19,093 nucleotides of DNA, from IMG/VR virus record IMGVR_UViG_2531839527_000011; one strand, given 5' to 3'. The number at the start of each line of letters is the position of its first letter. The first letter of the stretch is position 1. The stretch is from a virus. Its lineage: Duplodnaviria > Heunggongvirae > Uroviricota > Caudoviricetes. Position numbers and translations under genes: made by a program. The notes below the pieces were generated by a model that was not told the DNA's origin, made no database searches, and saw nothing but the letters and a program-made list of their open reading frames with translations. Shown in pieces: positions 10,418 through 11,827 of the stretch.

Positions 10418-10897
10418 TCACATGAGCCTTGTTATGTCCTTTAGACGCGACCAGGTAGTATAAAATTTTTTAAATGTAATAAGCAGGAAAAAAATTCCCA
10501 CTTGGAGTAATAGTTGGGCATATGTGTGCTCGTCGGCATCTTTTACTAGTGGGAATTTAAACTTTAGTGTATCAGGGAAAAATAATAAAATGATAAAAAT
10601 AATACAAACTGATAGTAACCATCCCATAGTGGAGTGCATTTCTTCGGTCAGTTTTTTCAAATAACCAGTTTTTCCTATATTTCTAATTAGCGTATTATCT
10701 CTAGCTGAAGCAATCAAGGTAAGCGAACCTAAAACAAAGCCAAATAATATCCCAGAAAATGTAGAAACGGCCGAAGCGATTGGCTGAATTTGTGCAAAAT
10801 TTAGCTTTGCAGAAAGAGGCCATGCGATGATACAAAAAACAACAGAGGCTAAATTATAACCATAACTGTACAAAGTTATCAATTTCCCCTTTTTCAT
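10418..10897 (-). CDS. Small integral membrane protein, about 4 predicted TM helices (159 aa); putative effector of a two-gene module
   Basis: Four hydrophobic stretches (VVFCIIAWPLSA; SGILFGFVLGSLTLIASA; GWLLSVCIIFIILLFF; LLLQVGIFFLLITF). GGAG RBS. Starts 15 nt downstream of the 304-aa gene. AT-rich. Confidence 0.65.
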   Translation of the reverse strand: MKKGKLITLYSYGYNLASVVFCIIAWPLSAKLNFAQIQPIASAVSTFSGILFGFVLGSLTLIASARDNTLIRNIGKTGYLKKLTEEMHSTMGWLLSVCIIFIILLFFPDTLKFKFPLVKDADEHTYAQLLLQVGIFFLLITFKKFYTTWSRLKDITRLM

Positions 10898-10912
10898 ACC
10901 ATCGCTCCAAAA

Positions 10913-11827
10913 TTAATCAACTCTTTGATTGGCTACTCCAAAGTATGCCTTCAATTCATCATCTTTACTATCTTTTGCAAGAGTTAAGGCGCTCCAAATG
11001 CTGCCAACTAATGGATACCTACCTCCAAGTTCAACATCTGTGTAGTAGACTAATTTGTCTGCTACAAGATCGATAGGATGCTGTACACCGGTCTCAATGT
11101 CTTGGGTTTCTAGTTTAAGTTTTTCAACCTCAAAAGTCTCTAGTGTTTCTTTAAAGGCTCTTTTTAGTTGAGAACCTAGATAGCGAGATTCAGGATCTTC
11201 AGAACGACTATCCCCACGTAATGTAAGATTTACTTTGGCAGAATTAGTACCATTTAGAGTGGCTATCAATGCATTGTTGAAGTTATGTTCAACATCCTCA
11301 TATAGTTGCACATTCTTTGGCCGAGCGATACCGATTTCTAGAGTTTTGATTCGAACTTCATTACGCATCAACCACTTTAAACTACTGGTCTGAATGATGG
11401 GATTAACAGTTGTATTTTGTGAACTGTTGGAAAGATATTTACTTAATAGCAACCAGCCATAACAGAGTCTGTTTCGTTGAATTATTAAAACTGAGTCTTG
11501 GGTATAAAAATGAAAATAAGCTTTTTCTAATAAGTTTTCATTGATTTCAAGTTTAATTTCTCTTTCTTCACCTCCGGCTACAGCAACATGAGGGAGATTA
11601 TTGGTTCTGTGTTTTCCTATAACTCCCCTGAAACCATAGTCGGTTCTTTCCATGAAGCGCATTTCAACTAGTTTATTTCCTATTTTACGTACAGTTTTGT
11701 CTCGGCCTTCGCTGTATGACTCAAAAATTTTTGAAAAAACAGCTTCAGGTGAATTAACTCCTGCATTTGTATCAGTGCTTATAGTGTGACATTGATAAAA
11801 ATCGAAGAAAAAGCGCTTGCTAGCCAT
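10913..11827 (-). CDS. Hypothetical soluble protein (304 aa), first gene of the two-gene module
   Basis: Long minus-strand ORF in the AT-rich island. No motif I can assign (no P-loop, no nucleotidyltransferase GS...DxD, no HEPN or TIR signature seen). Confidence 0.65.
   Translation of the reverse strand: MASKRFFFDFYQCHTISTDTNAGVNSPEAVFSKIFESYSEGRDKTVRKIGNKLVEMRFMERTDYGFRGVIGKHRTNNLPHVAVAGGEEREIKLEINENLLEKAYFHFYTQDSVLIIQRNRLCYGWLLLSKYLSNSSQNTTVNPIIQTSSLKWLMRNEVRIKTLEIGIARPKNVQLYEDVEHNFNNALIATLNGTNSAKVNLTLRGDSRSEDPESRYLGSQLKRAFKETLETFEVEKLKLETQDIETGVQHPIDLVADKLVYYTDVELGGRYPLVGSIWSALTLAKDSKDDELKAYFGVANQRVD

Follow-up and report, generated by a model that had tools for sequence, protein, structure and literature searches.

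By the count of the Pseudomonas putida study (PMC12894663), five Rex-like systems have been described, and Sucellos, a cassette of the Vibrio cholerae superintegron, is one beyond those five. Sucellos (10.1101/2024.07.02.601686) and RexABpp, encoded by PP_5643/PP_5644 of P. putida prophage P1 (PMC12894663), are Rex-like pairs with no Pfam RexA or RexB match; both provide defence that depends on the two genes together and harms the membrane. The Sucellos proteins SclA and SclB are RexAB-like by structure; the phenotype, for which both genes are required, is one of abortive infection (Abi), SclB is predicted to form a homomultimeric pore, and homologues reside preferentially in prophages of enterobacteria (10.1101/2024.07.02.601686). 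The Rex-like pairs of the actinobacteriophages Sbash, CarolAnn and Butters belong to temperate phages and exclude heterologous phages. Not every accepted Rex-like system is placed downstream of the CI repressor gene (PMC11077077).

Here we describe a pair of genes, A and B, in a prophage sequence of 19,093 nucleotides (IMG/VR record IMGVR_UViG_2531839527_000011; this whole stretch is referred to as the window). With a probability of roughly 0.65, these genes form a moron of a lambdoid prophage that encodes a far-diverged two-gene module of the RexA/RexB type, serving phage exclusion by abortive infection. The initial annotation of this DNA had suggested a prophage moron encoding a two-gene Abi module with a small polytopic membrane effector; homology and context support this general idea, and it is from them that we infer the function. 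Lambda rexA-rexB has the same gene order and the same 15-nt spacer (end of rexA at 36275, start of rexB at 36259), and the products, 304 and 159 aa long, compare with 279 and 144 aa for lambda RexA and RexB. Lambda rexAB lies in the immunity region after cI, whereas the window pair is convergent with a Q-type antiterminator gene at the delayed-early/late junction.

Compared by description only, the window pair fits the features of Sucellos, namely RexAB-like structure, lack of a Pfam Rex match and homologues in prophages; Sucellos, however, is an integron cassette and the window pair part of a prophage island. No V. cholerae protein was found among the close homologues of A, nor in a search with a 135-sequence alignment, which retrieved the close subfamily only; thus Sucellos, if related, is a distant branch. 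Both RexABpp proteins exceed A and B in size: RexBpp is longer than 181 aa, and His-tagged RexApp has a mass of about 37.5 kDa. The terminal peptides deduced from the RexABpp primers had no match among the proteins fetched, and the primer-derived 19-mer of PP_5643 was absent from viral contigs and gave chance matches only in metagenomes. Like the window pair, Sbash gp30/gp31, CarolAnn gp44/gp43 and Butters gp30/gp31 combine a cytosolic protein with a small membrane protein of four transmembrane (TM) segments, yet these pairs come from another host phylum and have no detectable sequence similarity to A and B, and the effector logic described for Butters is the opposite of what we propose below.

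The gene pair and its AT-rich island

Gene A (10913..11827, minus strand) encodes a soluble protein of 304 aa and gene B (10418..10897, minus strand) a membrane protein of 159 aa; both begin with ATG, and both open reading frames lie where the initial annotation had placed them. The 15-nt spacer between the genes (10898..10912, minus strand), read directly from the letters as TAA-ttttGGAGcgatggt-ATG, contains a GGAG ribosome-binding site for B, in keeping with the tight coupling that had been described. Homologue searches yielded 42 clusters for A and 29 for B, and the two genes are adjacent in all loci checked, which argues that A and B are real genes rather than chance open reading frames. 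RefSeq names A a DUF6731 family protein, and the annotation of E. coli ATCC 43896 lists a DUF6731 family protein and a hypothetical protein.

The GC content is 0.33-0.39 across approximately 10200-12200, as against 0.45-0.59 in the flanks, and the genes on either side are read from the plus strand, so that the AT-rich setting and the opposite orientation of the surrounding genes hold as reported. An AT-rich island is indeed present, but at approximately 9491-12089 it is larger than the 10418-11827 originally claimed. Delimited by the GC profile and by comparison with the prophage of E. coli L1_E925, this replaceable island (9491..12089) consists of a DUF4752 gene, a Q-type gene, B, A and 262 bp upstream of A. 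In L1_E925 the 2.6-kb island is swapped for 763 bp that hold a 140-aa hypothetical gene, and the flanks of the two prophages are 92% and 99.7% identical. The AT-rich stretch upstream of A (11828..12089, minus strand) is specific to the island, missing from the L1_E925-type backbone (99.7% identical), and is presumed to be regulatory. A consensus scan of the minus strand found no sigma-70 consensus promoter in 11828-12100, and therefore the native promoter assigned to that interval is not established.

The Q-type antiterminator gene of the island (9876-10412, plus strand; PF06530, Pfam E 2.8e-30) is convergent with B, the stop codons of the two genes are 5 bp apart, and no terminator was found between them. 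Positions 10065-11828 of the window can be aligned over 1789 bp to the Q-B-A block of a Klebsiella prophage (73% nucleotide identity), and the homology stops exactly at the start codon of A. The same arrangement is found in three Klebsiella loci; there the pair is flanked by Q and by the holin/lysozyme genes and is encoded on the opposite strand. By these sequence comparisons, the PF06530 Q-type gene, B and A are inherited as one block, and the PF06530 gene arrived with the Rex-like island. A second, unrelated Q-type gene (PF06323, 15132-15827, plus strand) is present in the same prophage.

In the window the pair sits between a Q-type gene and hok/sok, outside the immunity region; the distance to the repressor/cro region is about 3 kb. 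On the right, the island directly adjoins the type I toxin-antitoxin locus hok/sok (12107-12431, plus strand), with sok RNA (Rfam) at 12107-12281 and hokD (HOK_GEF) at 12219-12431; a Doc/Fic death-on-curing toxin gene lies at 12836-13330 (plus strand). The toxin genes reported to adjoin the pair are there, on its right side. A 75-aa open reading frame ahead of the Doc/Fic gene (within 12599-13330, plus strand) has no Pfam match and could encode the antitoxin.

Several further features of the window were recorded. Positions 1-12519 match the ATCC 43896 prophage at 99.6%, and positions 12090-19093 match the L1_E925-type prophage at 99.7%; the two matches overlap only across hok/sok, which therefore looks like the recombination joint of a mosaic. 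Directly after the PF06323 Q gene there is a second AT-rich island (15897-17476, plus strand; GC about 0.37-0.40), in which a eukaryote-type Ser/Thr protein kinase gene (279 aa) overlaps a PP2C phosphatase gene (247 aa). The kinase resembles the Stk exclusion kinase of prophage 933W, and the island may be another defence moron. DicF antisense RNA (4529-4580, minus strand; Rfam, 66.9 bits) adjoins the dicB region, as in Qin/Kim-type prophages.

Relationship of A and B to RexA and RexB

The initial annotation could assign no motif to A; the protein in fact matches Pfam DUF6731 (PF20505) over residues 1-268 with an E value of 2.2e-12 and 47.6 bits, above the gathering threshold of 27. When 1.84 billion representative proteins were searched with a profile (E<=1e-3), 788 clusters at 50% identity were placed in the DUF6731 family, nearly all of them 280-310 aa long, and 123 of the 135 aligned relatives of A from a deep search match DUF6731. 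Ten clusters of this deep search that were looked up are mostly metagenomic singletons. PHROGs carries the A family only as 'unknown function', and no mention of DUF6731 or PF20505 was found in the literature searched. With its 788 clusters, the family is far larger than lambda-type RexA, of which the phage collection contains four distinct types, and it is also taxonomically wider.

Sequence methods gave no significant link between A and RexA. Neither A nor any of the 135 family members matches the RexA profile (Pfam PF15969, PADLOC RexA), identity to lambda RexA (PDB 8TWQ) is about 10%, and comparisons by BLASTP and by hhalign with profiles of 29, 135 and 4 sequences (hhalign E 0.018-0.038, probability 1-3%) were non-significant. 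The best of the hhalign alignments, itself below significance (E 0.038, probability 1.4%), is colinear over 180 columns. Searches of PDB sequences with phmmer and hmmsearch gave no significant link of A to any solved structure, and no PADLOC system was matched by A. A match of the DUF6731 profile to eIF2-alpha (E 0.01) was judged to be due to chance. Weak matches to the PADLOC candidate family PDC-M67A occur in 5 of the 135 relatives (best E 7e-4).

In the structural model of A, a sheet and helices up to residue 143 form the N-terminal part, four strands and about four helices make up a central unit (residues 147-253), and the C-terminal side contributes one more strand followed by helices 274-287 and 289-296. 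The order of these elements is that of the published RexA description, an N-terminal sheet/helix part, a central unit and a kinked C-terminal helix. The model of A has the RexA fold, a split globular domain with an inserted dimerization domain, similar to RdgC. Confidence in the model is moderate and lowest in the central unit (pLDDT 45-62), as would be expected if this unit folds as a dimer. Given the low confidence of the central unit, the fold match rests mostly on the globular domain. A Foldseek search of the A model against viral models retrieved uncharacterised phage proteins (best E 1e-14) together with RdgC-type entries.

For B, the AF2 model (pLDDT 79) consists of four long helices (residues 3-30, 34-64, 79-106 and 126-158). 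Hydropathy reveals three strongly hydrophobic segments and a weaker fourth (about 126-158) that remains under the Kyte-Doolittle threshold of 1.6; the four TM segments claimed for B are present as helices, but the hydrophobicity of the last is lower than that of the first three. Under the positive-inside rule, the basic residues of B would place its two termini and the loop after TM2 in the cytoplasm, as in lambda RexB, and the TM positions of B parallel those of RexB. The PADLOC RexB HMM matches B with an E value of 0.0015 and, when aligned relatives are scanned singly, 23 of 26 B relatives (best E 5.1e-6). A comparison by hhalign of a 37-sequence B alignment with a 4-sequence RexB profile gave an E value of 2.4e-4 and a probability of 44%; the span (residues 18-85 versus 18-86) covers TM1, TM2 and the following loop at equivalent positions, and GKTGYL of B is aligned to REYGYM of RexB in the hhalign alignments. 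B does not match Pfam RexB (PF15968), and by BLASTP its similarity to lambda RexB is not significant.

Foldseek found nothing under E 1e-3 for the B model among viral structures, and no solved RexB structure was found for comparison. A 165-aa protein of mycobacteriophage Sbash, probably the RexB-like gp31, aligned with B at a TM score of 0.53 and an E value of 0.7. B and its relatives also give weak matches to the PADLOC candidate family PDC-M18B (E 0.0066 for B). Neither PDC-M18B nor PDC-M67A has a system name as yet, and these candidates may also represent Rex-like pairs. The top viral structural matches of A (E 1e-14) and B (E 2.8e-3) in BFVD are A0A8S5S8L2 and A0A8S5S8H0 of Siphoviridae sp. 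ctylc9; as these are neighbouring accessions from one uncultured phage, they suggest a further A-B pair at about 12-13% identity.

The view that the pair matches no named system is not supported, as A belongs to DUF6731 and has a predicted RexA fold, most members of the B family match the PADLOC RexB profile, though B does not match that of Pfam, and the architecture is that of rexA-rexB. A Kiwa-like system had also been considered. Kiwa (KwaA with four TM segments, KwaB with DUF4868) was rejected, since neither protein gave a KwaA or KwaB match with PADLOC at E values up to 1; it is only by comparison with Kiwa that the genes appear in reverse, their order being the native one of Rex.

Distribution and linkage of the pair

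Of the 5426 complete genomes of E. coli, 19 carry the DNA of the pair at 99.3-100% identity; all 19 copies are chromosomal, and the host is human wherever it is recorded. In E. coli ATCC 43896 the pair is part of a lambdoid prophage adjoining potC. Among representative genomes, B directly follows A in eight of eight loci from seven genera (Photobacterium, Aeromonas, two Pseudoalteromonas, a Saprospiraceae MAG, Endozoicomonas, Marinobacterium and Geomonas), and the two genes are likewise adjacent in loci of Klebsiella, Vibrio and Rahnella. Adjacency holds even with an A relative of 22% identity, in a P2-like prophage, and the identity of B falls in step with that of A among the relatives. A and B are neighbours in every locus examined.

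The carriers are lambdoid prophages (E. coli, Klebsiella), a P2-like prophage, a PM2-like prophage, a plasmid-like contig and a small mobilisable island beside a short gene with a ChlI/Mg-chelatase domain, which we read as a disrupted comM. No homologues were found in PLSDB plasmids. In Endozoicomonas the pair is located between AAA_15/AAA_21 and HNH genes on one side and Mrr/NERD genes on the other; this stretch is a defence island.

In Pseudomonas phage AUS531phi (MN585195) a CI-like repressor gene, an A homologue (32% identity) and a B homologue are found on one strand, which is the arrangement of lambda cI-rexA-rexB. The gene after the DUF6731 homologue (4698-5144) is annotated as encoding 118 aa; the match to the B family extends upstream, so that a longer product of about 148 aa, whose start codon lies within the last part of the A gene, looks more likely. 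In the locus of the P2-like prophage the start of B also overlaps the end of A.

Proposed function and competing explanations

In a lysogen, A and B would be made from one transcript, and A would act as a cytosolic, DNA-binding dimer of the RexA/RdgC type. Upon infection by another phage, A may respond to a phage product or to a protein-DNA intermediate by activating B, which would oligomerize into a channel or pore; the membrane potential would collapse, and growth would stop or the cell would die before the invader completes its cycle. The scheme is modelled by analogy on lambda RexAB (PMC11077077), Sucellos (10.1101/2024.07.02.601686) and RexABpp (PMC12894663), and fold, profile similarity, architecture and context are the grounds on which we infer dimerization, DNA binding, activation of B by A, pore formation and the defence phenotype.

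Alternatively, A might mainly regulate the lysis-lysogeny switch of the prophage by binding DNA or repressor, with B as an accessory and no phage exclusion. In lambda, RexA acts on the bistable switch without the help of RexB (PMC11077077), the modelled fold of A is of the RexA/RdgC type and one relative directly follows a CI-like repressor gene. We consider this explanation unlikely, given that the pair is also found on a plasmid-like contig, a mobilisable island and a defence island, outside prophages, where there is no switch to regulate, that A and B always occur together, and that about 3 kb separate the window pair from repressor/cro. A reversal of roles, in which cytosolic A is the toxic or antiviral effector and membrane-bound B sequesters it until infection, has a precedent in the Rex-like pair gp30/gp31 of mycobacteriophage Butters (PMC12894663). 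Such a reversal seems improbable here; the effector is the membrane partner in lambda, Sbash, CarolAnn, RexABpp and Sucellos (PMC12894663; 10.1101/2024.07.02.601686), and it is B whose family is similar to the PADLOC RexB profile.

The neighbourhood of hok/sok and of the Doc toxin gene, and the constant association with mobile elements, would fit an addiction or stabilization module resembling toxin-antitoxin systems, or else a membrane superinfection exclusion system that blocks DNA entry, rather than Abi; small membrane proteins can act as toxins or as injection blockers of the Sie/Imm type. The size and organization of the pair are unlike those of known toxin-antitoxin pairs, however, the RexA-like fold of the model and the similarity to the RexB profile favour Rex, and placement in a defence island fits defence, which makes this explanation very improbable. 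Quite improbable, in our estimate, is also that the resemblance to RexA is an artefact of modelling or of fold convergence and that the function of the pair is unrelated, an explanation with which the non-significant sequence similarity between A and RexA and the moderate confidence of the A model are compatible.

A wider interpretation, which we regard as doubtful, holds that DUF6731 and its RexB-like partner represent the main, unrecognised branch of the Rex superfamily, with a trigger other than that of lambda and with antisense self-silencing. If true, hundreds of clusters in Proteobacteria, Bacteroidota and Desulfobacterota, residing in prophages, plasmids and islands, would make lambda RexAB a small offshoot, and the placement of the pair convergent with Q in E. 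coli and Klebsiella would allow antisense late transcription to silence the suicide module during induction.

As a Rex-type exclusion module, the pair represents no new defence principle; the principle is seventy years old, and remote Rex-like pairs have recently been validated. The designation as a novel defence system was too strong, because defence has already been demonstrated for Sucellos and RexABpp, two distant Rex-like pairs that were recognised by their structure. The pair adds a putative enterobacterial example, from a prophage of enterotoxigenic-type E. coli, to a class of five or six described members, and it offers a testable function for DUF6731, a large domain of unknown function (788 clusters). 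The wide spread of the family would provide many natural variants for asking what RexA-type sensors detect, a question that dates from Benzer's rII work.
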